From Fistulifera solaris (Eukaryota), in NCBI GenBank assembly GCA_030295235.1, contig AP026172.1, positions 917,902 to 937,901 on the forward strand: 20,000 nucleotides of DNA. Direction: 5' to 3'. Shown here piece after piece: positions 1 to 20,000 of the stretch (positions are counted from its first letter, which is position 1; every line of letters begins with the position of its first letter). The notes beneath the pieces were generated by a model. That model ran no database searches. It saw nothing but the letters and a program-made list of their open reading frames with translations, and was not told where the DNA came from. A program made the translations under genes and the position numbers.

Positions 1-2243
1 GCGAATCAAAGCATCTTCACTGTCAAACATGAATTCAGCCAAGGCTTTGCAAAGCAGAGTCTTACCAACACCCGTCGGACCCAAAAAGATAAAAGACGCG
101 ATTGGCTTGTCGGGGTCATTGAGACCAGCTCGGGATCGTTGCACGGCCTCTGTTACGGCCTCGACGGCTTCTTCTTGGCCGACGACACGATTCTTTAGCT
201 TTTCGCCCATGGTCAAAATACGATCTTTCTCGGTTTCTAACAATTTACCGGGAGGGATTCCGGTCCAAACAGCCACGACCGCCGCAATATCGTCGGCAAC
301 GACTTCGTCGCGAAGCATCTTTTCGCGGTTGTTCATGTCAGATTCCGTTTCCATGGCATCCAATTGCGCCAGTTCCTCCTCTAAAGGCGGAAGGGCCGAG
401 AACTTCAATTCAGCCGCCTTGTTCAAATCATACTCGCGTTCCGCTTTTTCGATCTCAAACTTTATACCTTGAATCTTTTCTTTCAACTCGTTAAGGCGAT
501 TTACACCACCTTTCTCAGCCATCCAACGAGCGGTCAAGTCCTGCTGTTCCTTTTGAAGCTGAAGAAGCTCCTCATCCAACTTGGCCAGACGGTACGACTC
601 TTCTGGCGTCGAAGATCCATCTTTTTCAAAATCGGAGCGCAACGATAGCCGTTCCATTTCCAATTGAATAATGCGGCGATCAATTTCATCCAAGATCACG
701 GGCTTGCTGGTGATTTCATTTTTGAGTTTTGCACAGGCTTCGTCGACAAGATCAATAGCCTTGTCGGGCAGAAAACGGTCCGGGATGTACCGATGACTAA
801 GTTTGGCCGCCGCAAGTAAGGCTTCATCACGGATGCGAATACCGTGGTGCAATTCGTAACGTGGTTTAAGACCACGTAAAATACTGACAGTGTCTTCAGG
901 GGTTGGCTGATCAATCATAACTTGTTGAAACCGACGTTCCAAAGCCTTATCCTTCTCAATGTATTTTCGATACTCGTTCACTGTAGTCGCACCGATGCAA
1001 CGCAATTGTCCTCGAGCCAAGGCTGGCTTCAAGAGATTACTGGCATCCATGGATCCCTGTGCGGACCCAGCGCCGACAACAGTATGCATTTCGTCAATAA
1101 ACAGAATAATCTCTCCATCACTCTTCATGACTTCCTCGAGAACGGCTTTGAGTCGCTCCTCAAATTCACCACGCATCGTGGCACCAGCTACCAATGCTCC
1201 GAGGTCGAGACCAATTAGACGACTGCCTTTCAAACTCTCCGGAACGTCTCCGTCGACGATACGCTGGGCAATACCCTCCGCAACAGCCGTCTTTCCAACT
1301 CCAGGGTCTCCAATCAGCACAGGATTGTTCTTGGTTCGTCGCGATAGTATTTGAATAGCACGTCGGATTTCGTCATCACGACCGATCACTGGGTCTAGTT
1401 TGCCTTCACGTGCTCGTTCGGTGAAATCAATGCCATATTTGTTTAGTGCATCGTACATATTCTCTGCACTTCGCGAGATGACGGGCCCCGACTTTTCACG
1501 CATGCCTTTGACAATAGTAAGCAAGTCCTGGTATTTAACATTTTGCTTGAATAGAGCATCGCGGGTAAAGAGGGAATCTTCCTTGGCGAGCGCCAGCAAG
1601 AGTCCTTCCGACGACACGAATGAATCCTGTGAAACATAAAAGCAATGGGAATGAGTCAAGGAGTAGATACGACTACCATAGCATCTCCTGAATCATCACT
1701 TACACCTAGTACACTCTTTACTTGCGTCGCACCGTCCAACACGGCTTGCAACGATCGTCCCATGGTCTTTTGTGCACCGGAATCCGCACTGACCTTGGCC
1801 TGTCTCGCCAAAAAGTCGTCAAGTTCTCGACGCAAGTCGCTCACGTTACATTGAGCTTGCGTCAGAATGCGTTCCACAACCTTGCGCGCCGCTTCCGCGT
1901 CGTCACCGGCGTTGTGTTTTTTGGGATTGAGCAGTAAATCCAGCATCAAAGGTGCTTCAACATTCGTCGATTGATGAAATTCGGCGGCTTTAGTCAAACT
2001 CGCGATCGCACTCCAGGCCGCGTCAGTGTATTTGGCTTGATTAAAGTCATCAGCAGCCATCTGGAGTCTAGTAGAGAGACGATAGGGTTTGCTTGTCAAG
2101 AACAAAGAGGGAGACAAAGTGTTTGGCGATCGAGAAATAGTCGACGAAGGCACGAGTGCGGCAGGACAAAAGGCATTCGTATGTTGCCATGATGTCGACG
2201 CAATACTTAAAAGAATAACAACTGCGCTATTTCCAATCTTCAT
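1..2243 (-). CDS. clpB: Plastid-targeted ClpB/Hsp100 disaggregase, 3'-truncated by the window edge; exons 2243-1704 and 1626-<1
   Basis: Manual translation of exon 2 gives [39 protein letters not shown] (Walker A1), IILFIDEMH (Walker B), [23 protein letters not shown], a coiled-coil M-domain ([14 protein letters not shown]) and [10 protein letters not shown] (Walker A2). The N-terminus [22 protein letters not shown] is a signal peptide plus an ASAFAP-like motif and a Ser/Arg-rich transit peptide. Confidence 0.96.
1627..1703 (-). other. 77-nt spliceosomal intron in clpB
   Basis: GTAAGT donor at 1703 and TTTCACAG acceptor at 1627; phase-0 splicing gives the in-frame join [19 protein letters not shown] typical of Clp N-domains. 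Confidence 0.92.
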
Positions 2244-3073: not shown

Positions 3074-5002
3074 CTACATGCGACGGCTTCCCGAATCGGC
3101 CGAGTCCTTGCTGGCACTGTCGAGATGACGGCGACTTCCCGAATCTGCCGAGTGCTTGCTGGCACTGTCGAGGTGACGGCGACTTCCCGAATCTGCCGAG
3201 TCGTTGCTGGCACTGTCGAGGTGACGGCGACTTCCCGAATCGGCCGAGTCCTTGCTGGCACTGTCGAGGTGACGGCGACTTCCCGAATCGGCCGAGTCGT
3301 TGCTGGCACTGTCGAGATGACGGCGACTTCCCGAATCGGCCGAGTCCTTGCTGGCACTGTCGAGGTGACGGCGACTTCCCGAATCGGCCGAGTCGTTGCT
3401 GGCACTGTCGAGATGACGGCGGCTTCCCGAATCGGCCGAGTCCTTGCTGGCACTGTCGAGATGACGGCGACTTCCCGAATCGGCCGAGTCGTTGCTGGCA
3501 CTGTCGAGGTGACGGCGACTTCCCGAATCTGCCGAGTCCTTGCTGGCACTGTCGAGGTGACGGCGACTTCCCGAATCGGCCGAGTCCTTGCTGGCACTGT
3601 CGAGGTGACGGCGGCTTCCCGAATCGGCCGAGTCGTTGCTGGCACTGTCGAGGTGACGGCGACTTCCCGAATCTGCCGAGTCGTTGCTGGCACTGTCGAG
3701 GTGACGGCGACTCCCCGAATCGGCCGAGTCGTTGCTGGCACTGTCAAGGTGACGGCGACTTCCCGAATCGGCCGAGTCGTTGCTGGCACTGTCGAGGTGA
3801 CGGCGACTTCCCGAATCTGCCGAGTCGTTGCTGGCACTGTCGAGGTGACGGCGACTTCCCGAATCGGCCGAGTCCTTGCTGGCACTGTCGAGATGACGGC
3901 GACTTCCCGAATCGGCCGAGTCGTTGCTGGCACTGTCGAGGTGACGGCGACTTCCCGAATCTGCCGAGTCCTTGCTGGCACTGTCGAGGTGACGGCGACT
4001 TCCCGAATCGGCCGAGTCGTTGCTGGCACTGTCGAGGTGACGGCGACTTCCCGAATCGGCCGAGTCGTTGCTGGCACTGTCGAGGTGACGGCGACTTCCC
4101 GAATCTGCCGAGTGCTTGCTGGCACTGTCGAGGTGACGGCGGCTTCCCGAATCGGCCGAGTCGTTGCTGGCACTGTCGAGGTGACGGCGACTTCCCGAAT
4201 CGGCCGAGTCGTTGCTGGCACTGTCGAGGTGACGGCGACTTCCCGAATCTGCCGAGTGCTTGCTGGCACTGTCGAGGTGACGGCGGCTTCCCGAATCGGC
4301 CGAGTCGTTGCTGGCACTGTCGAGGTGACGGCGACTTCCCGAATCGGCCGAGTCGTTGCTGGCACTGTCGAGGTGACGGCGACTTCCCGAATCGGCCGAG
4401 TCGTTGCTGGCACTGTCGAGGTGACGGCGGCTTCCCGAATCGGCCGAGTCCTTGCTGGCACTGTCGAGGTGACGGCGACTTCCCGAATCGGCCGAGTCGT
4501 TGCTGGCACTGTCGAGGTGACGGCGACTTCCCGAATCTGCCGAGTCCTTGCTGGCACTGTCGAGGTGACGGCGACTTCCCGAATCTGCCGAGTCGTTGCT
4601 GGCACTGTCGAGGTGACGGCGACTTCCCGAATCGGCCGAGTCGTTGCTGGCACTGTCGAGGTGACGGCGACTTCCCGAATCTGCCGAGTCCTTGCTGGCA
4701 CTGTCGAGGTGACGGCGACTTCCCGAATCGGCCGAGTCGTTGCTGGCACTGTTGAGGTGACGGCGACTTCCCGAATCTGCCGAGTCGTTGCTGGCACTGT
4801 CGAGGTGACGGCGACTTCCCGAATCGGCCGTGTCGTTGCTGGCACTGTCGAGATGACGGCGGCTTCCCGAATCGGCCGATTTCTTAGAGTCGTTGCTTGC
4901 CAAGAAACGCTTTCGCAACATCTGGTTGCCGCTTGGAATCTCACTTGAGCTTCCGCACGTCAAAGAGACGAGGAAGAAGAGGGTTGCAGTTGGGAACTTC
5001 AT
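3074..5002 (-). CDS. Secreted tandem-repeat polyprotein (642 aa): signal peptide, short pro-region, then 37 x RRHLDSAS(N/K)(D/H)SADSGS; silacidin/silaffin-like peptide precursor
   Basis: ATG start, hydrophobic leader MKFPTATLFFLVSLTCG, LRKRFL site, uninterrupted ORF. Most nucleotide variants between units are synonymous in this frame (CAC/CAT, AGT/AGC, GCC/GCA, CTC/CTT, GGA/GGG), which identifies it as the true frame. Confidence 0.88.
   Translation of the reverse strand: MKFPTATLFFLVSLTCGSSSEIPSGNQMLRKRFLASNDSKKSADSGSRRHLDSASNDTADSGSRRHLDSASNDSADSGSRRHLNSASNDSADSGSRRHLDSASKDSADSGSRRHLDSASNDSADSGSRRHLDSASNDSADSGSRRHLDSASKDSADSGSRRHLDSASNDSADSGSRRHLDSASKDSADSGSRRHLDSASNDSADSGSRRHLDSASNDSADSGSRRHLDSASNDSADSGSRRHLDSASKHSADSGSRRHLDSASNDSADSGSRRHLDSASNDSADSGSRRHLDSASKHSADSGSRRHLDSASNDSADSGSRRHLDSASNDSADSGSRRHLDSASKDSADSGSRRHLDSASNDSADSGSRRHLDSASKDSADSGSRRHLDSASNDSADSGSRRHLDSASNDSADSGSRRHLDSASNDSADSGSRRHLDSASNDSADSGSRRHLDSASNDSADSGSRRHLDSASKDSADSGSRRHLDSASKDSADSGSRRHLDSASNDSADSGSRRHLDSASKDSADSGSRRHLDSASNDSADSGSRRHLDSASKDSADSGSRRHLDSASNDSADSGSRRHLDSASKDSADSGSRRHLDSASNDSADSGSRRHLDSASKHSADSGSRRHLDSASKDSADSGSRRM
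3086..4861 (-). repeat. Coding tandem array of 37 x 48 bp (minus-strand consensus CGCCGTCACCTCGACAGTGCCAGCAACGACTCGGCCGATTCGGGAAGT), with a partial unit extending to 4879
   Basis: Directly visible; 1776 bp / 48 = 37 units, no indels. Confidence 0.98.
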
Positions 5003-5098
5003 GTTCGATGAACTTTTGCTGTTTTTCCTTCGGATGTTTTGATTAATGAGCTTGAAAGAGACAAACTAGGAAGATACAGAATTTTGTGATCTACCTGT

Positions 5099-5278
5099 TG
5101 ACGTCAGTATATCTTCCACGTTTCTCACTTCTCGCTCACCTTCGCACGAATCGCCAATCCCACATCTGTCCAAGTATGGAACACGGAGTAAATAATTGCG
5201 ACCAGATTATTTATGAATCATGAATGGCGTAAATATATATATTGACAATTCTGTATACATTTTTCAAGCATGACTCAT
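5099..5278. promoter_or_regulatory. Candidate bZIP sites upstream of the repeat polyprotein: TGACGTCA (5099-5106), ATGAATCAT (5213-5221), ATGACTCAT (5270-5278)
   Basis: Perfect CRE-type and AP-1/GCN4-type palindromes within about 100-280 bp of the ATG at 5002; function is inferred only. Confidence 0.3.
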
Positions 5279-6534
5279 TGCGAGTTGCGAGCCGAGACCA
5301 AAAATCTAATTCAATTTTGAAAAGGTTACAGATTTCTATGAAATCTTCTTAGATGGAGTAGACTAGGATGTTGTATGATACTTGGCTGTGATTGACAAAG
5401 CATACTTCTTAAAGAAAAGAGTCAAGAGACTGGTCTAGGGTCTAGGTGATAACATTAAGTATCGCGTCAGGTATAGTGGCAGTCGCTCAAATTGACTTTT
5501 AATTTTTAATAGTGGGAATTGGATATACGATATTGTTTGTTACTCCGTAGCTTTTAAACGGTTTTTGGTTTCAGCTTCTTAAGAAAATTCAATCCCCCCC
5601 CCTCGTTGCTCGTTAGTCGTTAGTCATATTTATTACCTGGTACTTAGATGTTAGAAAAAGTGAGTTGTGACTGCAAACAAAATTTGGTTTCCCATTTTCC
5701 ATTTCCAACGGTTGCTTTGGATTTTATGTGTTCGAGTGAAATGTGAAATGTGAAACGTCGTAGGTGGTAGTTGTAGGTGGTGTGAAAACGTGCTTCGTGC
5801 GGAGTCTCAGTAAATTTGGCCTATAATACAGCCTAAGGCTTAAGTGGTACACACTTGGTGTACTCGACGCTTGAAACTTGAAACTTGGTTCCTGACTCCT
5901 GACTCCTGACGCGTTGAGATCCGAAACCGAAACTGGTATCAGAAATCTTAAATCAAGAGGGCCTTTTAGGACCATCGAAACCGCTTACCGCTGTTTTTAA
6001 AATTTTGAAATTATTGGTCCGAGTGTCGGGTTTCGGGTCTGCCGCTTGCCGCTATGGCTACTACGTAGTACAGTACCTGGTACTTGCTAATTTGTGGTCC
6101 GTTCGTTTTGCTACAGGGTAAGCCGTAGTTTCAGTGACATTTTTATGTAGGCATCGATTGTTTACGTCGTAAATGCTTCGAAAATAGTAACTTCCTATGA
6201 TTATAAACCCAGGAACTATGAATGTGTTGACGTGTTGACCACTTACTTCCACGACTGCAAATTTGTCGTGAGTTGTTAGTCACAACCACTCTAGTTCCGG
6301 CGGAAAATTTTTCGTGCTCCCAGCGGGACGTCATACCCGGGACCCAGTTACCCCGGGACCATCGTTACGTTGCACGTTGCACCACACGGACACCCGTTTT
6401 CACACGTATAGCTAGCGCGCAATTATAAACACACCCGTTTTCACGGAGTACTGAGTAGGAACATAATAAATTGGCAGTTCATTGTTTATGATGAAGGGCT
6501 CAAACATTGCAGACGACTCCGGCAAGCTGCAATC

Positions 6535-7134
6535 TTAGTTCTGATCATCGGTGCTGTCATGTGCAATATCATCTGCGCTATCGGTGTCGTTATTATGCGT
6601 TTCAATCATCGCGTATCCACTTTCGCAACCCGTGGCGTTCAACACAATTTTCAAAAACGCCCTTTCACAGCCACTGAAATTTATGTTGTTGCCCACGCCC
6701 GTGATTTCGCAACCACTCCTATCCGTTTCGATTACCATTGATCCATGGTTGCAGTTACTGATGTTCATTTCGATTTCGAGAACTACGTCGGTGTGGTTAA
6801 TCACAATTGTCTCGTCATCAGCACTATCGGAATCGCGGTACAGGACGTTGTTCGAATCGCTGTCGTCGCTCTTATCGTCGGAGGAATTTGCGTTATGTTG
6901 AAGGCGACGACCAAAAGAGTGTACAATTGTCGACAAGCGGTCAAACGGGGCGATGCCCACGCTTTCTAGCTCGAACCGGTGCTTTCTTAAAAGCGAACTC
7001 GAATGAGGGCTCAGGTTTGCATGCGTCGGTTCATCTAGATCGCTTTTGACCTCGTGGTTGGGCAATGAAGCGAGGACCAAGAACGATTCTTTCAGAAACG
7101 CAGACACGAAAAGACAAAGTAAACGGCAATTCAT
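6535..7134 (-). CDS. Putative secreted acidic protein (199 aa) with an RRLQ processing site, Asp/Ser-rich segments and a two-repeat Cys-containing domain
   Basis: Hydrophobic N-terminus MNCRLLCLFVSAFL; GRRLQ followed by HNANSSDDKSDDSDS; several N-x-S/T sequons; single ORF with ATG start. Confidence 0.7.
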   Translation of the reverse strand: MNCRLLCLFVSAFLKESFLVLASLPNHEVKSDLDEPTHANLSPHSSSLLRKHRFELESVGIAPFDRLSTIVHSFGRRLQHNANSSDDKSDDSDSNNVLYRDSDSADDETIVINHTDVVLEIEMNISNCNHGSMVIETDRSGCEITGVGNNINFSGCERAFLKIVLNATGCESGYAMIETHNNDTDSADDIAHDSTDDQN

Positions 7135-8147
7135 CCTTTCAAGATTTGATGATCAACATTGGCGAGAAAGAAAATATAGGGAACCTTTTATGAAAAGAAT
7201 GAGTGGGTGCAAAAAAGTTAAAAAATGAGAATCTTTCCGTTTTACGTTTGCGGGGTAACATCATCGGAACTCTATCGGGTTCTTTGAGAACCACGAAAGT
7301 ACTTGCAGGCGATTCTCTTTCCCTGGACGAGGCGACATACGGCTAAACTGCGTCGTCTCAAGATAAAGTATTTCATTTATTTGTCGTTAACTGCTGCGCT
7401 GTAATGATGTTATGGTTGTCACCTTTCATGGAATTTAATGTAAACTAATTCGTTAGTCTTTGGCGAAATAGAAACAGTATGAACAACAAGCCGACAATTC
7501 CCTATCACGATGATTTCTCCGATTGTTGGCAGAGAACCGTGTAGCTTTAGCCAAAAGAATGGTGTGTTCACTACAATCCAGTTGAGCCTATTGTGGCCGA
7601 CGCTTGTCATCCGAGATGGAAAGAGCAATCAGAAGTGTTGGTGTTTGCAACTCTGAAAGCGAGGCTAAAGAAAGTCTGCATCAATACGGAATAGATTTTA
7701 TGATGATGGTGCTTTCTCACTCGAAAAGAGTTTTTATGAAAAAAGCCCGCCGACTAGATAGCTGTATAAACCTAACTCATTAGCTGATACCCATCTCTGA
7801 TCTGCTTGGTTGAGCAGCTAAACCAACGTGAAAACCAAATATTAAAGAAACAAATTGGATAGATCATTATTTGTAAATGCGACTACCGTTAGCGACGATG
7901 GTTCTTTCCCGTGACATATTAAAGCGACCGGCCTCATTGACAAGAATGCAAAAGAAGACATGAAAATAGTCTCTGTAGTCACTAATTTACAGCGTGATTA
8001 GTTCATCGAGCGGCGACCCCGCTCATGGGACAAAAAAGAAGAAAAGATTTGAAAAGCACCAACAACGAGATGACGCATTCCATTTCGTCGCCGAACTAAC
8101 ACTCCCTGATGCGCTTCCACTGTTTTCGTCTCATTTAGACAATTGTT

Positions 8148-8333
8148 TCAGCAATGACGCTCGCTATCGAGTTGATCCGCTTTTCTTAAAGATTCTTTCA
8201 CTTCTCCGCTCTTCAAAGACGAAGGCTTCGGTTCGATCATGACGAGGTGGATCTTGTTGTTCGTGGAGAGGAGGCTCGAATTTATTCCCGGCGAAGCTAC
8301 CAAAATGAACAAAGGTAGAAAAGAGAGTTTCAT
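8148..8333 (-). CDS. Possible small secreted peptide ORF (61 aa, MKLSFLPLFILVASPG...) or a truncated gene
   Basis: CAAAC-ATG context and a signal-peptide-like MK plus hydrophobic N-terminus; short, with no recognisable domain. Confidence 0.35.
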   Translation of the reverse strand: MKLSFLPLFILVASPGINSSLLSTNNKIHLVMIEPKPSSLKSGEVKESLRKADQLDSERHC

Positions 8334-8937
8334 GTTTGAATGAGTAAAGTTGATTGCTTCTTCGATGCAATGAAGATGAACGAAGAATGACAACAGCGCT
8401 AAAGAAAACGTTAGTGTCGTCGGCGTATGTATTGGCGTCTCTAAAAATGGTTGTGTGGACTGTCGATTATAGAGTATGCGCAATCCTGCGCAATGAATCG
8501 TGCGAAAAAGGAAAATTCCTATGTACCTGGTAGCAAGTCAGAAAGCGAAAAGCAGACGTCATTACACGTCAGGTGCTTTGGGTGTCGCTCGTAGTTTACA
8601 GTTTAAGGAGCTAGGGGTAACCGATTTACCCCGCATATTACCAGTGTTTCTTCGTTTCATTGGCAACGCAACAACTTCCGCACGCGAGAATAATTTCGGG
8701 ACGGATCTTTCAATCGACTTTTTGTCGGATAGGCTTCAACACAAGGATAATAAATGTGGGGTCTCAGCTCGACTAAGATGCCAACGTCATGCGACATTAT
8801 ACTACATAGTAATCATGAAATTTGACATTTAGTAAGAGATATACTGAGCATAGTTGTCACCAATTCATGTTCGAATTCAAAAATATGAATGACTAAAACG
8901 GAGCACAACGGACTAAGGATCGCTTCTGGTATTCCCC

Positions 8938-10076
8938 TCAAGACGAACCTAAGTTGTGAAACAGAGTTTCACTCCGCGGTATAGCAATCGCCTCCGCTTC
9001 TCCTCCGACTCCAATCGCAACAGCTGCTTGCCGATCGGGACAATCCATAATTTGGGTCGGTGCAAGTTGCACCAACTGCGACCACGCCCCGGGTGCATGC
9101 GCCAAGCGGAACTGAAACGCGTGCCCTACAAAGGTTCCTTCAAACTTTGTAGCACTTGCCCAGTCCCACATAAAATCGGGTAAGTTCGTGGTCTCACGGC
9201 CCAAGTGAAACTTGAAGGTTTCTTGACAGTCTTCGGCTGCCGGTGCCACATAGTAGCCATGCAGAGGACATCCCGCCACATTGCGAAATGCCACATCGAG
9301 TGTATGACACGGCCGACCCTCGGCGGGTGGTGTTCGAGCGTACATCGGATCGAAAGTCGCATCCTCACGTATGGGCTCCAAGTCTTCCAATGGACAATTG
9401 ACAAGCAGTTCGGGGGGAATGTTGCTGCCAATCGGAATGAGGCCAACTCGATGCTGCATCAGAATAGGTCCTGCGGAACCATCTGGAAGGATTTCCCGTG
9501 CTTGAAACGAATGACCTTGATAAGTATGCAAGGCCATCCACTGTCCAGGCTGCAACTGCGTCGTTTCATCCTGCATCGGCACCAGCTGCGGATTGCGAGC
9601 TGATTTTTCATTCCCTTCGGCATCTAAGTAAGAAATAACTACTGCATGGCTTGATTTATTTTCGACAATCCACATAGTATCAAGCCCCGTTTGAATGTTC
9701 TGTTGTGCGTGTTGTTGTGTGAACGCTCCCGGATCTATCGGACAGTAAAAGGTCTTTTCGTTCGGCACATTCATGATAGTTCCTTGTGCTTTTAATGCTT
9801 GATAACGTGCCGCTCGACCCAATGTATCTTTGAAGGCATTGAATTGCTGGCGATCACAAACAACATCCGAATGGAAGCGCGCACCTTCTTGAATCGCATT
9901 CGGATCAGGACATTTGCTTCCGCTGTTACTTGTGGCAGCTGCAGCTAAAGCAGCAGCGGCAGTCAGTGGGTTTGGCATGGTTGGGAAGCAACATGTATGT
10001 CAGCAAATGAATGTACCACAAAAGAATAGGGAAGATGAATAATAATCAATGCAAGCAAATAATACGAAAGCATCAT
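8938..10076 (-). CDS. Probably secreted protein with two VHL beta-domain-like repeats; putative signal-peptide exon 10076-10017, main exon about 9944-8938
   Basis: Repeat 1 WIVENKSSHAVVISYLDAEGNE..LQPGQWMALHTYQGHSFQARE and repeat 2 VAFRNVAGCPLHGYYV..EGTFVGHAFQFR fit the VHL-beta pattern (F.N.S...V...W...G....L.PG.....SY.GH.W..R). Upstream CACC-ATG MMLSYYLLALIIIHLP looks like a signal peptide; the GTACAT..CTGAC..TTTAG intron is off-phase by 1 nt. Confidence 0.7.
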
Positions 10077-10370: not shown

Positions 10371-11714
10371 ATGACAGAAGTGAGAGACACGAAAGATTCT
10401 GGAAAGGCGTTATTTGCGACACGCGAATATGCAATCGGTGATATCATCTTGCAAGAAGACAAGCCGTTGGCTATCTTGTCGCACACTACTTCTTATAGCG
10501 CTAAAAATGATTCTCCGTTCATTGCTATTGCGCAGGCTTATCAACAGAGCAACACCCAGTTAGATATTGAGGCGAAATTGTTATCGCTTTATCACCCACA
10601 GGCTGACACGGCAAATCCTGCGGAACAGGAACTCTGGAAAAATAGCCAATCCGCCGCGGAAAACGACGATCGTCTTCACAAAATCATTATGATTGCATGC
10701 TGTAACTCTTTTCAAGGAGGATATGTGTACGAACATGCCAGTCGAATCAATCATTCCTGTCAGCCGAATGCAATTGTGAATATACAAGAGGACACTGGTG
10801 CATTGCTCTTACGAGCATTGACGCCGATTGTTGTCGGCGAAGAAATTGGCATTTCCTACGCCGGCTTGTATCTGTATACCGATACCAGGGCACGCCAGCA
10901 TGTATTGCGCCGTGATAAATTCTTTGATTGTGCCTGTGTACGGTGTCAAGAGGCTGTCGACCCGGCGAATATGATCCCTTGTACTAAATGTCATCCTCGG
11001 CACCAATCTCATTTGGATGAAGCGACCCAATACGATGACGACGACGAGCACCCCGTGAAATACATGATGTGGAAGAGTGATCAATTCGTTTGTGAGTCAT
11101 GCGATTATGTAGAAACGTTAAAATCATCTGTCGCTACCGTGGTACATTCTATCTCGGATAAAGTTTTGCAATTTCTTGAACAATACAAGGAACAAGACAA
11201 CAGCTCGAAGGCGTCCTCTGAACAGAAAGACAATGCGCCCCAGGACGAACAGGACGAAGAATTGGAATCGCTATTGCAGGAGCACTTATCGCTAGCGAGC
11301 AGTGTGTTGGGCGCTCGTCACTGGACGACAAATTTGTTGCTTCTACTGTATCTCGATCGGGGATTGAAGCAATACCACAAAAAGCTTATTTTTCAACAAG
11401 CGGCTGACGATGACATGCAGCTGGACTTGGCAGAACACATCGATCATTTACAACGTATCACGCAGTTTGTGAAAAGGCTAAAACTTCACTTGCACCCGGG
11501 CCATTTGCTTTCCGACGTGATTGTCGGGATAGCGCGTGCATTAGTAAGCTTGAGCGATGTCAAATCCGCTCAGTATGCTACCAGATGGTTGGATCATTTG
11601 ATTGGATACGAGCCTTTCTTGTCTGAGGCGCTTGTCAAAGTGGTTGACTCGCTCAAAAGTGCATGGACACGTATGGAAGCCGACGAACCGGCACATAAAA
11701 AACTAAAGGGATAA
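10371..11714 (+). CDS. SMYD-like SET-domain lysine methyltransferase
   Basis: SGKALFATREYAIGDIILQE (SET-N), SRINHSCQPN, LRALTPIVVGEEIGISY, post-SET FFDCACVRC, extra CxxC pairs, a helical C-terminus with LGARHW and a terminal PAHKKLK NLS-like motif. ATG at 10371 (ACC-ATG) is preferred over GTG at 10326. Confidence 0.9.
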   Translation: MTEVRDTKDSGKALFATREYAIGDIILQEDKPLAILSHTTSYSAKNDSPFIAIAQAYQQSNTQLDIEAKLLSLYHPQADTANPAEQELWKNSQSAAENDDRLHKIIMIACCNSFQGGYVYEHASRINHSCQPNAIVNIQEDTGALLLRALTPIVVGEEIGISYAGLYLYTDTRARQHVLRRDKFFDCACVRCQEAVDPANMIPCTKCHPRHQSHLDEATQYDDDDEHPVKYMMWKSDQFVCESCDYVETLKSSVATVVHSISDKVLQFLEQYKEQDNSSKASSEQKDNAPQDEQDEELESLLQEHLSLASSVLGARHWTTNLLLLLYLDRGLKQYHKKLIFQQAADDDMQLDLAEHIDHLQRITQFVKRLKLHLHPGHLLSDVIVGIARALVSLSDVKSAQYATRWLDHLIGYEPFLSEALVKVVDSLKSAWTRMEADEPAHKKLKG

Positions 11715-12193
11715 CGAGCTATCGAGCTTACAACAATGCAGTTATTTCTGACTCAGATACAGCCGTTCGCCGATTGCAGCCAATCCAAATATTTTTGTCG
11801 GGCAACAAGCTGTTAAGGAAGATCGATTGCTTCGTTAAAGTCTTGTGCAACGTTGCGTCAGAGAAGGCCGTTCGCAGAAAAGTGACCCTATTTGGGACTA
11901 AAGATAAATTTAGCGACCACCGGTCCTAAAAAGGGACCAAATAAGGTGGCATTTCAGGCACCGTTGGCTCCATCAGCTCTCGCATTAACAACAAATTTGG
12001 AATTGAGAATTTTGGAATAGTCTCGAATTACAGAAGACATTTTCGAAGCGCAGAGATTCCAAATTTCACCCATCCTTGGCTACATGGATGAGAACGAAGC
12101 ACGTCTCAATTTTCGAGAGGCAACTCATCGTTCATTTTCTTACAAATTGCTTCTTTGATTTTCCCTTTTCATCTCTCGTAGCAATCTATACCA

Positions 12194-17836: not shown

Positions 17837-18673
<837 letters not shown>

Positions 18674-19730: not shown

Positions 19731-20000
19731 TAGGGTTAGGGTTAGGGTTAGGGTTAGGGTTAGGGTTAGGGTTAGGGTTAGGGTTAGGGTTAGGGTTAGG
19801 GTTAGGGTTAGGGTTAGGGTTAGGGTTAGGGTTAGGGTTAGGGTTAGGGTTAGGGTTAGGGTTAGGGTTAGGGTTAGGGTTAGGGTTAGGGTTAGGGTTA
19901 GGGTTAGGGTTAGGGTTAGGGTTAGGGTTAGGGTTAGGGTTAGGGTTAGGGTTAGGGTTAGGGAGTTAGGGTTAGGGGTTAGGGTTAGGGTTAGGGTTAG
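19731..20000 (+). repeat. Telomere (TTAGGG)n, about 45 units; right chromosome end
   Basis: G-rich strand runs 5'->3' toward the window end; two variant units near 19961-19980. Confidence 0.98.

Follow-up and report, generated by a model that had tools for sequence, protein, structure and literature searches.

The minus strand of the window analyzed here (the whole 20,000-nucleotide stretch of DNA, from the raphid pennate diatom Fistulifera solaris) carries a complete 642-residue reading frame in which short Ser/Asp-rich units alternate with RRHL spacers. We put at roughly one half the probability that this frame is a real gene, absent from the protein sets that were searched, and that its product is a secreted, disordered polyprotein serving as the precursor of silacidin-like acidic peptides. 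This is the best reading of the locus because the layout of the protein matches that of the RXL-processed biosilica precursors Sil1p and silacidin. The first-pass annotation had placed the frame at the correct coordinates and left its strand unstated; its parts are collected in Table 1.

Table 1. Features of the 642-residue frame and its upstream flank, in window coordinates.
Feature	Position	Strand	Basis
Possible 5' UTR (47 nt or more before the ATG)	5003..5049	-	158-nt contig of run X2; kind of run (RNA?) guessed
Entire coding frame (642 residues, TAG stop)	3074..5002	-	ORF lists and sequence
Signal-peptide-like segment, residues 1-20: Lys2, hydrophobic core at about 6-16, small C-G-S-S-S	4943..5002	-	Hydropathy, inspection
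Pro-segment EIPSGNQMLRKRFL, residues 21-34, ending RFL (RXL motif at 32-34)	4901..4942	-	Translation
Divergent first unit ASNDSKKSADSGS + RRHL, residues 35-51; sole KK of the protein	4850..4900	-	Translation
36 complete 16-residue units (12-mer + RRHL each), residues 52-627	3122..4849	-	Repeat finder, motif count, translation
Last unit DSASKDSADSGS + RRM, then stop; residues 628-642	3077..3121	-	Sequence, motif count
48-nt tandem array, 37.4 copies as assembled, 95% matches, no indels	3087..4879	.	Tandem Repeats Finder

The N-terminus of the protein, which begins MKFPTATLFFLVSLTCGSSSE and later reads MLRKRFL followed by ASNDSKKSADSGS, has the organization described for a typical biosilica protein, namely a signal peptide and then a stretch ending in an RXL motif (PMC5525289, available text). 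The Kyte-Doolittle mean over 11 residues peaks at 2.12 at residues 6-16, with all later windows at or below -0.64, and, as judged by hydropathy and inspection, this segment would act as an ER signal peptide of the kind carried by RXL biosilica precursors. The RXL domain, as defined in that text (PMC5525289), is represented by RFL directly before the first unit, and the pro-segment also holds RKR, a kexin/furin-type basic site. Signal-like segment, pro-segment ending LRKRFL and first unit are all present in the translation, as the first-pass annotation had reported.

Downstream of this region the protein is strikingly regular. The 37 copies of RRHL define 36 intervals, every one of exactly 16 residues; R-x-L sites number 38, with the units at a strict 16-residue period. 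The 37 12-mers that follow RRHL comprise DSASNDSADSGS (21 copies), DSASKDSADSGS (11 copies, the final one followed by RRM and the stop rather than by RRHL), DSASKHSADSGS (three copies) and single copies of DSASNDTADSGS and NSASNDSADSGS. The earlier description of 37 units of RRHL plus DSAS(N/K)(D/H)SADSGS therefore stands, the pattern being exact in 35 of the 37 12-mers. At the DNA level, a 38-nt back-translated pattern for HLDSASNDSADSG is matched 21 times, compared with no matches in 200 shuffles. The copy number of an array of this kind (1.8 kb at 95% identity) is that of the assembly and depends on it.

The consensus 12-mer contains 5 Ser and 3 Asp with no Glu, and a single Lys is found in 14 of the 37 12-mers after RRHL; the pI of the units lies between 4.05 and 5.2. 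At pH 7 the calculated charge of the 16-mer is -1.15 in the Asn form and -0.15 in the Lys form, and that of the trimmed 12-mer is -3.24 and -2.24, respectively, which bears out the proposal that a nearly balanced unit becomes anionic once the spacer has been removed. The protein as a whole (pI 6.3) consists of 30% Ser, 17% Asp and 2.8% Lys, contains neither Tyr nor Trp, and has two Pro and one Cys, the latter within the signal peptide. There are 24 N-x-S/T sequons, of which 23 fall in Asn-type units. Structure prediction yields a mean pLDDT of 44.7, a sole helix at residues 6-13 and no predicted fold, and the protein is accordingly predicted to be intrinsically disordered. Silaffins and silacidins are likewise characterized as random coils with little Cys (PMC5525289, available text), which this composition and the absence of a predicted fold match.

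Both of the systems that the protein most resembles are described in one review, of which partial text was available (PMC4557024). There, RXL motifs are said to end the repeats of silacidin, cingulin and frustulin precursors, and mature silaffins to lack the C-terminal RRIL or RRNL of the Sil1p repeats. Sil1p, from which silaffin-1 of Cylindrotheca fusiformis is made, comes like the 642-residue protein from a pennate host, and the two also share a signal peptide followed by an RXL motif and tandem Ser-rich units ending in RRxL (RRHL in all 37 instances here; in Sil1p the tail is missing from the mature peptides) (PMC4557024). The Sil1p units, however, number seven and are basic and Lys-rich, with polyamine or methyl groups on the Lys residues (PMC4557024), whereas the present protein has 37-38 units that are acidic and show no polycationic character, with KK confined to the first unit.

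The second system is the silacidin precursor of Thalassiosira pseudonana (Wenzl 2008 and Richthammer 2011, as summarized in PMC4557024 and PMC5649158). It is repetitive and secreted, with RXL at the repeat ends, and gives rise to Ser- and acid-rich peptides that are then phosphorylated; the peptides of both precursors would be strongly anionic if phosphorylated (PMC4557024, partial text). The T. pseudonana gene is likewise very repetitive, for which reason its PCR is reported to be difficult (PMC5649158, partial text). The description of silacidins as Ser- and Asp/Glu-rich peptides of a repetitive precursor fits the consensus 12-mer, but no sequence similarity to silacidin, which is compared here by its description, emerged from the database searches given below, and the acidic residues of silacidin include Glu (PMC4557024, partial text) where those here are Asp only. 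Further differences are the RRHL spacer, the uniformity of the 37 12-mers, the Lys in 14 units and the N-glycosylation sequon in 23. In the available text of PMC5649158, moreover, silacidin homologues are reported from centric diatoms only and as absent from the Phaeodactylum tricornutum and Fragilariopsis cylindrus genomes, in contrast to the raphid pennate host considered here.

A pennate precedent for a short Ser/acid repeat is the SEV.S.SE protein of Entomoneis vertebralis, which was proposed to be silacidin-like by pattern alone, without sequence similarity to silacidin (PMC12533330, partial text). It is set apart, by its description in that text (PMC12533330), by a Glu/Val motif, by an uncertain gene model and by RRxL spacers not being among the features reported. 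The F. solaris frustulins, with acidic Cys-rich (ACR) and polyglycine, Pro-rich or Trp-rich domains (PMC4712521, partial text), offer no match to a protein of this composition. The label 'silaffin/silacidin hybrid' given by the first-pass annotation is hence best taken, in our analysis, as a likeness in layout and composition and not as family membership: the signal-like N-terminus, RXL pro-domain, RRxL units and acidic Ser/Asp core agree with what the reviews describe (PMC4557024, PMC5525289, partial texts), while membership is not supported, the searches having recovered no sequence relative and the protein lacking polycationic character (Lys 2.8%, a single KK) and, in its peptides, Glu.

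If the protein is processed as these precursors are, its signal peptide would direct it into the ER, and a diatom RXL-type processing protease may cut at RFL and at every RHL, on the C-terminal side of the Leu; alternatively, a kexin-like enzyme acting at RKR and RR, followed by trimming, would leave identical cores. The basic RRHL tail would be trimmed, just as RRIL and RRNL are missing in mature silaffins, releasing some 38 short peptides (23 Asn-type, 14 Lys-type and one KK-type). With five Ser per peptide in acidic S-x-D and S-x-S contexts, phosphorylation appears likely from the sequence, and this would yield a strongly polyanionic, silacidin-like pool of peptides that may act within the silica deposition vesicle as the partner of long-chain polyamines.

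A different fate for the same protein is that it acts uncut, as an intact secreted polyampholyte glycoprotein in which acidic blocks (DSAS.DSADSGS) alternate with basic ones (RRHL) and the Asn-type units carry N-glycans, located at the cell surface, in mucilage or in an adhesive matrix or binding cations, and variable in copy number by virtue of a subtelomeric position. We regard this as unlikely, but as an explanation to be weighed seriously: the sequons, which agree with it as well as with a processed precursor, the nearly balanced charge of the 16-mer before cleavage, the whole-protein pI, the predicted disorder and a telomere repeat about 14.7 kb away would all suit it. Against it, no membrane anchor or hydrophobic C-terminus is found (hydropathy maximum past residue 30, -0.64), modules rich in Cys, Tyr or Pro that might serve cross-linking are lacking, and processed diatom precursors show the same arrangement of an RXL pro-domain followed by units with a strictly periodic RRxL (PMC4557024, PMC5525289, partial texts).

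That the frame itself is the coding one is indicated by several features of the locus. It runs from an ATG starting at 5002 to a TAG at 3076-3074 without interruption, so that no intron is needed; 120 nt separate the ATG from the array on its 5' side, and the stop adjoins the last unit on the 3' side. Three of the six frames are open across the array, and the 642-residue frame alone continues beyond it on the 5' side into a hydrophobic N-terminus that starts with an ATG. The codon log-odds of this frame is the highest of the six (0.172, with 0.027 for the runner-up). The 36 units differ by 9 distinct variant types, of which 5 are synonymous when read in this frame, where 22% would be expected (binomial p = 0.03), and 3 in each of the other two open frames; this test is based on just 9 variant types, and an antisense frame closed by stops performs as well in it (6 of 9, p = 0.028). 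The 642-residue frame is favored over the other two open frames because it is the only one to reach an ATG and signal peptide, has the best codon log-odds and has the synonymous variants on its side. The gene is situated about 15 kb (approximately 14.7 kb) from a telomere repeat at 19731-20000.

No sequence relative of the protein was recovered. There was no Pfam family at E ≤ 0.01, none of the 7,999 candidates of near length scored in a word-indexed homology search reached E ≤ 0.001, the ESM Atlas returned no usable match, and a collection of 15 billion proteins does not contain this exact sequence. A HMMER search of 1.84 billion protein representatives gave 290 matches at E ≤ 0.001. The best 150 of these, 9 of them inspected in full, are unrelated repeat proteins with periods of 8 or 16 residues (for example IDSGS, RYLDSQDV and SRRSADPK repeats). 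A motif script found RRxL-spaced acidic units in none of 156 proteins (the best 150 of the 290 matches and 6 others), and we rejected the matches as relatives, regarding them as artifacts of periodicity and composition. In JGI metagenome contigs, the protein query gave 143 pattern matches, none confirmed by tblastn, to which low-complexity masking may contribute, and a degenerate 29-nt DNA pattern gave none. Literature searches for four peptide strings gave no occurrence, and no such protein is named in the titles and abstract beginnings of the listed open-access Fistulifera papers on silaffins, silacidins or biosilica proteomics. Within the window, the neighboring ORF at 6535-7134, also acidic and secreted-looking, gave no BLASTP alignment with the 642-residue protein and was rejected as a detectable paralogue. 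A link to the SET-domain gene at 10371-11714 was likewise rejected, its sole support being a distance of 5 kb; diatom-specific SET methyltransferases are reportedly named in the title of one paper.

There appears, from sequence comparison, to be a second genomic copy of the gene. A contig of run X1, which is DNA-like, contains the repeat in register (34 x 48 nt) joined to a flank in which 25 of 30 letters agree with the 3' flank of the window, and the stop codon, compared by eye, is in the same position as in the present copy.

Transcription of the gene is only hinted at. The 158-nt contig of run X2 (4892-5049) bridges the start codon with 0 differences, and contigs of 40-78 nt alike to the repeat occur in run X5, a freshwater metatranscriptome recorded as RNA. 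Cover of the repeats is found in both X2 and X3, whose contigs in 8957-9918 and 10512-11757 lie inside the ORFs at 8938-9978 and 10371-11714, and X3 also covers 7876-8366; the region 5142-7847 is uncovered in both, although gaps in cover carry no evidential weight. This pattern looks like that of RNA, the kind of runs X1-X3 being guessed, and the contigs carry no strand or end information, while RNA libraries may contain DNA.

These observations bear on the suggestion that the locus is a non-functional, GC-rich subtelomeric minisatellite whose 48-nt unit happens to be stop-free in several frames and is preceded by an ATG by chance. The openness of three frames, the GC content of the array (0.62-0.64, versus 0.39-0.50 in the flanks), the missing homologues and database entry and the scant signs of transcription would all be expected of such a repeat. 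We nonetheless consider it improbable, as the ATG, the hydrophobic N-terminus and the RXL motif share one frame with the codon and synonymous-site preference, the stop stands exactly at the end of the array and is kept in the apparent second copy, and the contig of run X2 spans the start codon.

Fungal alpha-factor-type precursors processed by kexin consist of a signal peptide, a pro-region and tandem short peptides with basic spacers, and the 642-residue protein shares this plan, but its products would be polyanionic and of low complexity, and its spacer bears the diatom RXL motif. A receptor ligand without hydrophobic or aromatic residues would also be unusual. That the protein is a multi-copy precursor of a diffusible, pheromone- or hormone-like signal, cut by a kexin-type convertase at dibasic sites as in alpha-factor and animal neuropeptide polyproteins, is very unlikely: the signal peptide, the RKR pro-region and the many identical short units with RR spacers would agree with it, but the cores are made of Ser, Asp, Ala and Gly with Asn, Lys or His alone, a polyanion in 37 copies better suits a bulk material role, and the RRxL spacer is a diatom biosilica motif (PMC4557024, PMC5525289, partial texts).

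Silaffin and silacidin sequences are not conserved, even inside one genus (PMC12533330, partial text), and silacidins are reported from centric diatoms only (PMC5649158, partial text); the present product would be a candidate silacidin analogue in a pennate diatom, and a candidate for the acidic polyanion that partners long-chain polyamines there. Repetitive precursors can escape gene prediction and protein databases, and proteomics against such annotations could not detect the 642-residue product.

A more speculative extension, which we think has little chance of being correct, is that this one gene delivers two chemically distinct kinds of peptide as a fixed-ratio pool (23 Asn : 14 Lys : 1 KK), in which a third-position AAC/AAG change exchanges an N-glycosylation sequon for a modifiable lysine. 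Once phosphorylated, and with polyamine or methyl groups on the Lys, the pool would combine a silacidin-like polyanion with a silaffin-like zwitterion and so make up, on its own, a mixture for templating silica in a pennate lineage without known silacidin. In that case the protein would, to our knowledge, be the highest-copy RXL polyprotein.

The dominance of one 12-mer makes the peptide easy to synthesize in phosphorylated form and easy to seek by mass spectrometry, and both genome data and GFP-fusion transformants exist for F. solaris (PMC4712521, partial text).

Judged from its sequence layout, the locus most plausibly represents a putative new form of diatom peptide precursor with units spaced by the RXL (R-x-L) motif, and its copy number is unusually high and uniform. 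The first-pass annotation had claimed a secreted-type frame with 37 RRHL-spaced units, and this is borne out by a single 642-residue frame on the minus strand. It contains 38 R-x-L motifs, and its 37 RRHL motifs keep a constant spacing of 16 residues over all 36 intervals. Each RRHL is followed by a 12-mer, namely DSASNDSADSGS (n=21), DSASKDSADSGS (n=11), DSASKHSADSGS (n=3), DSASNDTADSGS (n=1) and NSASNDSADSGS (n=1). The Asn forms contain an N-D-S sequon, contributing to a total of 24 N-x-S/T sequons, and a single third-position change (AAC/AAG) converts a unit between sequon and lysine. The polyprotein is rich in Ser (30.2%), Asp (17.0%), Arg (12.1%) and Ala (12.0%), lacks Tyr and Trp, and has one Cys, within the signal segment. 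The earlier expectation of charge balance before cleavage and an anionic product after spacer removal also agrees with the calculated values, the uncut 16-mer being near neutral at pH 7 (-1.15 or -0.15) and the trimmed 12-mer carrying -3.24 in the Asn form and -2.24 in the Lys form. Residues 1-200 show no fold in a single-sequence AlphaFold model (mean pLDDT 44.7; helix at residues 6-13 only), which is weak evidence consistent with disorder.

Features of the polyprotein (residues) and of the window (nucleotides, strand in brackets).
Feature	Position	Observation
Signal-like segment MKFPTATLFFLVSLTCGSSS	residues 1-20	hydropathy maximum 2.12 at residues 6-16; later windows all ≤ -0.64
Pro-segment EIPSGNQMLRKRFL	residues 21-34	terminates in R-x-L motif
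First unit ASNDSKKSADSGS + RRHL	residues 35-51	
36 units, each 12-mer + RRHL	residues 52-627	
Last unit DSASKDSADSGS + RRM	residues 628-642	followed by stop
Polyprotein frame	3074-5002 (-)	ATG to TAG (ORF listing)
Repeat array	3087-4879	48-nt unit, 37.4 copies, 95% matches, no indels (Tandem Repeats Finder)
Gene pieces	1-1503 and 1656-2243 (-)	gene open at window edge
Next gene upstream	6535-7134 (-)	199 aa; hydrophobic N-terminus, ...GRRL (RXL motif), then acidic Ser/Asp stretch NSSDDKSDDSDSNN...DSDSADDE
Small ORF	8148-8333 (-)	61 aa; signal-like start (MKLSFLPLFILVASPG...); beneath X3 contigs (7876-8366)
SET-domain protein	10371-11714 (+)	447 aa; Pfam E=1.7e-10; 5 kb from polyprotein
Ubiquitin-Sod_Ni ORF	17837-18607 (-)	256 aa; hydrophobic leader, ubiquitin domain (Pfam E=6.5e-32), Sod_Ni (E=6.2e-29); HCQVPCG directly after ubiquitin C-terminal ...LRGG
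TAGGGT array	19731-20000	44.5 copies up to window end, G-rich strand toward end

Diatom biosilica precursors share this layout. According to the available parts of one review (PMC4557024), an RXL motif follows the signal sequence of Sil1p, the silaffin-1 precursor of Cylindrotheca fusiformis, and the RRIL/RRNL tails of its repeats are missing from mature silaffins; the repeats of frustulin, cingulin and silacidin precursors terminate in RXL motifs, which has been taken to suggest one RXL-specific endopeptidase. Silacidins, in the same account, derive from a highly repetitive precursor, contain many Asp/Glu residues and many serines, which become phosphorylated, and act together with long-chain polyamines (PMC4557024). 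An RXL domain after the signal peptide is called typical of biosilica proteins, and silaffins, cingulins and silacidins Cys-poor random coils, in the accessible text of PMC5525289. Compared with the Lys-rich, polycationic silaffins, the polyprotein contains little Lys (2.8%), and it shows none of the features that define frustulins in the available part of PMC4712521. The silaffin/silacidin hybrid proposed earlier is partly supported: the RXL layout and the Ser/Asp-rich units stand, the polycationic character of silaffins is absent, and silacidin homology was undetected in the protein and metagenome collections searched. The polyprotein would work like a silacidin or Sil1p precursor, yet is assigned to neither family.

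As far as the excerpts available state, the P. tricornutum and F. cylindrus genomes lack silacidin homologues, which occur in centric diatoms only (PMC5649158); silaffins and silacidins are unconserved even inside one genus, and a silacidin-like protein has been proposed in another pennate from pattern only (PMC12533330); the F. solaris frustule proteins named are frustulins and G7408 (PMC4712521). What is established here is sequence layout, and the polyprotein is a good and cheaply testable candidate for the acidic phosphopeptide that is missing in pennates.

Our main reading, given a probability of roughly one half, is that of an RXL-processed precursor of acidic peptides for silica formation, in which everything beyond the presence of the motif is interpretation. 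The processing order is proposed because the layout matches the precursors described in the available parts of PMC4557024 and PMC5525289. The polyprotein would be imported into the ER and cut after RFL and after every RHL (a kexin-type cut at RKR/RR with trimming would yield identical cores), the basic tail would be removed, serines in S-x-D and S-x-S contexts would be phosphorylated, and the resulting polyanion pool would be used in silica formation. An intact secreted polyampholyte glycoprotein, with which the sequons and the charge balance agree, is the less probable reading, as the polyprotein has no anchor or cross-linking residues and its RRxL periodicity is strict.

Since three of the six frames are open over the array, where GC is 0.62-0.64 versus 0.39-0.50 in the flanks, an open frame alone means little as evidence for a gene. 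The polyprotein frame is the sole open frame to reach an ATG and a signal-like N-terminus, 120 nt beyond the array on its upstream side, and it terminates right after the last repeat unit. Its codon log-odds (0.172, with seven other ORFs of the window as reference) is the highest of the six, the other open frames scoring 0.027 and -0.038. Furthermore, 5 of the 9 distinct variant types among 36 complete units are synonymous in this frame versus 22% expected (binomial p=0.03, from a small sample of repeats that do not evolve independently), and 3/9 in each of the two other open frames; one antisense frame has 6/9, but is closed by 37 stops.

A second genomic copy, roughly 10% diverged, seems to retain the end of the gene, as judged from a junction contig and a divergent neighbour in the sequencing run X1, evidently a DNA run because it covers all 30 bins, intergenic DNA included. 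The junction contig links repeat sequence to 30 loose letters, 25 of which match the 3' flank of the window by eye, and is in register with the array (4713-3081 = 34 x 48); by the same comparison the stop codon position is unchanged and the last codon altered. The neighbouring gene stretch 9202-9790 is present in X1 in two versions, one identical and the other with 58 differences in 589 nt, which fits two diverged subgenome copies; the divergent version is mostly what runs X2 and X3 contain. The window is eukaryotic and, going by cluster membership, probably belongs to one subgenome of F. solaris, a raphid pennate diatom: at no less than 90% identity, the 346-aa protein encoded at 8938-9978 falls into one cluster with a named protein of this species. 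The 5' reach to an ATG, the codon log-odds, the synonymous variants and the end of the second copy favour the proposed frame; a non-functional subtelomeric minisatellite is judged improbable. Least probable of all is a signalling-peptide polyprotein, the core peptides having no hydrophobic residue.

Transcription of the candidate gene is hinted at by contigs that give neither strand, ends nor level and may reflect DNA in RNA libraries. In X2, guessed to be RNA, a 158-nt contig (4892-5049, 0 differences) spans the start codon, and repeat contigs are present in X2 and X3. In X5, a freshwater metatranscriptome recorded as RNA, 40-78-nt contigs resemble the repeat: of 15, 2 have a likeness of 99% or more, 7 of 95-99% and 6 of 90-95%, one of the 15 lying outside the repeat at 8248-8280.

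The exact polyprotein is absent from about 15 billion proteins while three window neighbours are present in the same collection, and the frame is therefore missing from deposited protein sets. No Pfam family matched, a near-length word search found no relative, and ESM Atlas gave no usable match. HMMER over 1.84 billion representatives returned 290 matches at E≤0.001, the best 150 of which belong to unrelated proteins that repeat with a comparable period, none having RRxL-spaced acidic units; the top identity among these 150 is 53%, to an IDSGS repeat. Among JGI metagenome contigs, the protein query gave 143 pattern matches, 0 confirmed, and the DNA pattern 0 matches. Four peptide strings of the polyprotein occur in no paper of the literature searched.

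The 199-aa protein encoded next upstream looks, from its sequence, to be secreted like the polyprotein; it matches no Pfam family, BLASTP finds no similarity between the two proteins, X2, X3 and X5 have no contig on its gene, and its relatives are at 77%, 73% and 43% identity. Diatom-specific SET methyltransferases are reportedly tied, by one paper's title, to cell-wall formation. The TAGGGT array, from its reach to the window end and strand orientation, looks like a telomere, which we take to be of the TTAGGG type; the polyprotein gene would therefore be subtelomeric, about 14.7 kb away. The Ni-binding hook of nickel superoxide dismutase needs an N-terminal His, which removal of ubiquitin from the 256-aa protein would expose, given the position of HCQVPCG; the exact 256-aa sequence is absent from the 15-billion-protein collection. 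The 61-aa ORF may encode a small secreted protein. The two gene pieces at the window start, probably joined by an intron, presumably encode a Clp/Hsp100-type chaperone, recognised by eye, and the upstream ORF begins with a signal-like leader; the ...TNAF|CP after this leader resembles a diatom plastid-targeting motif.
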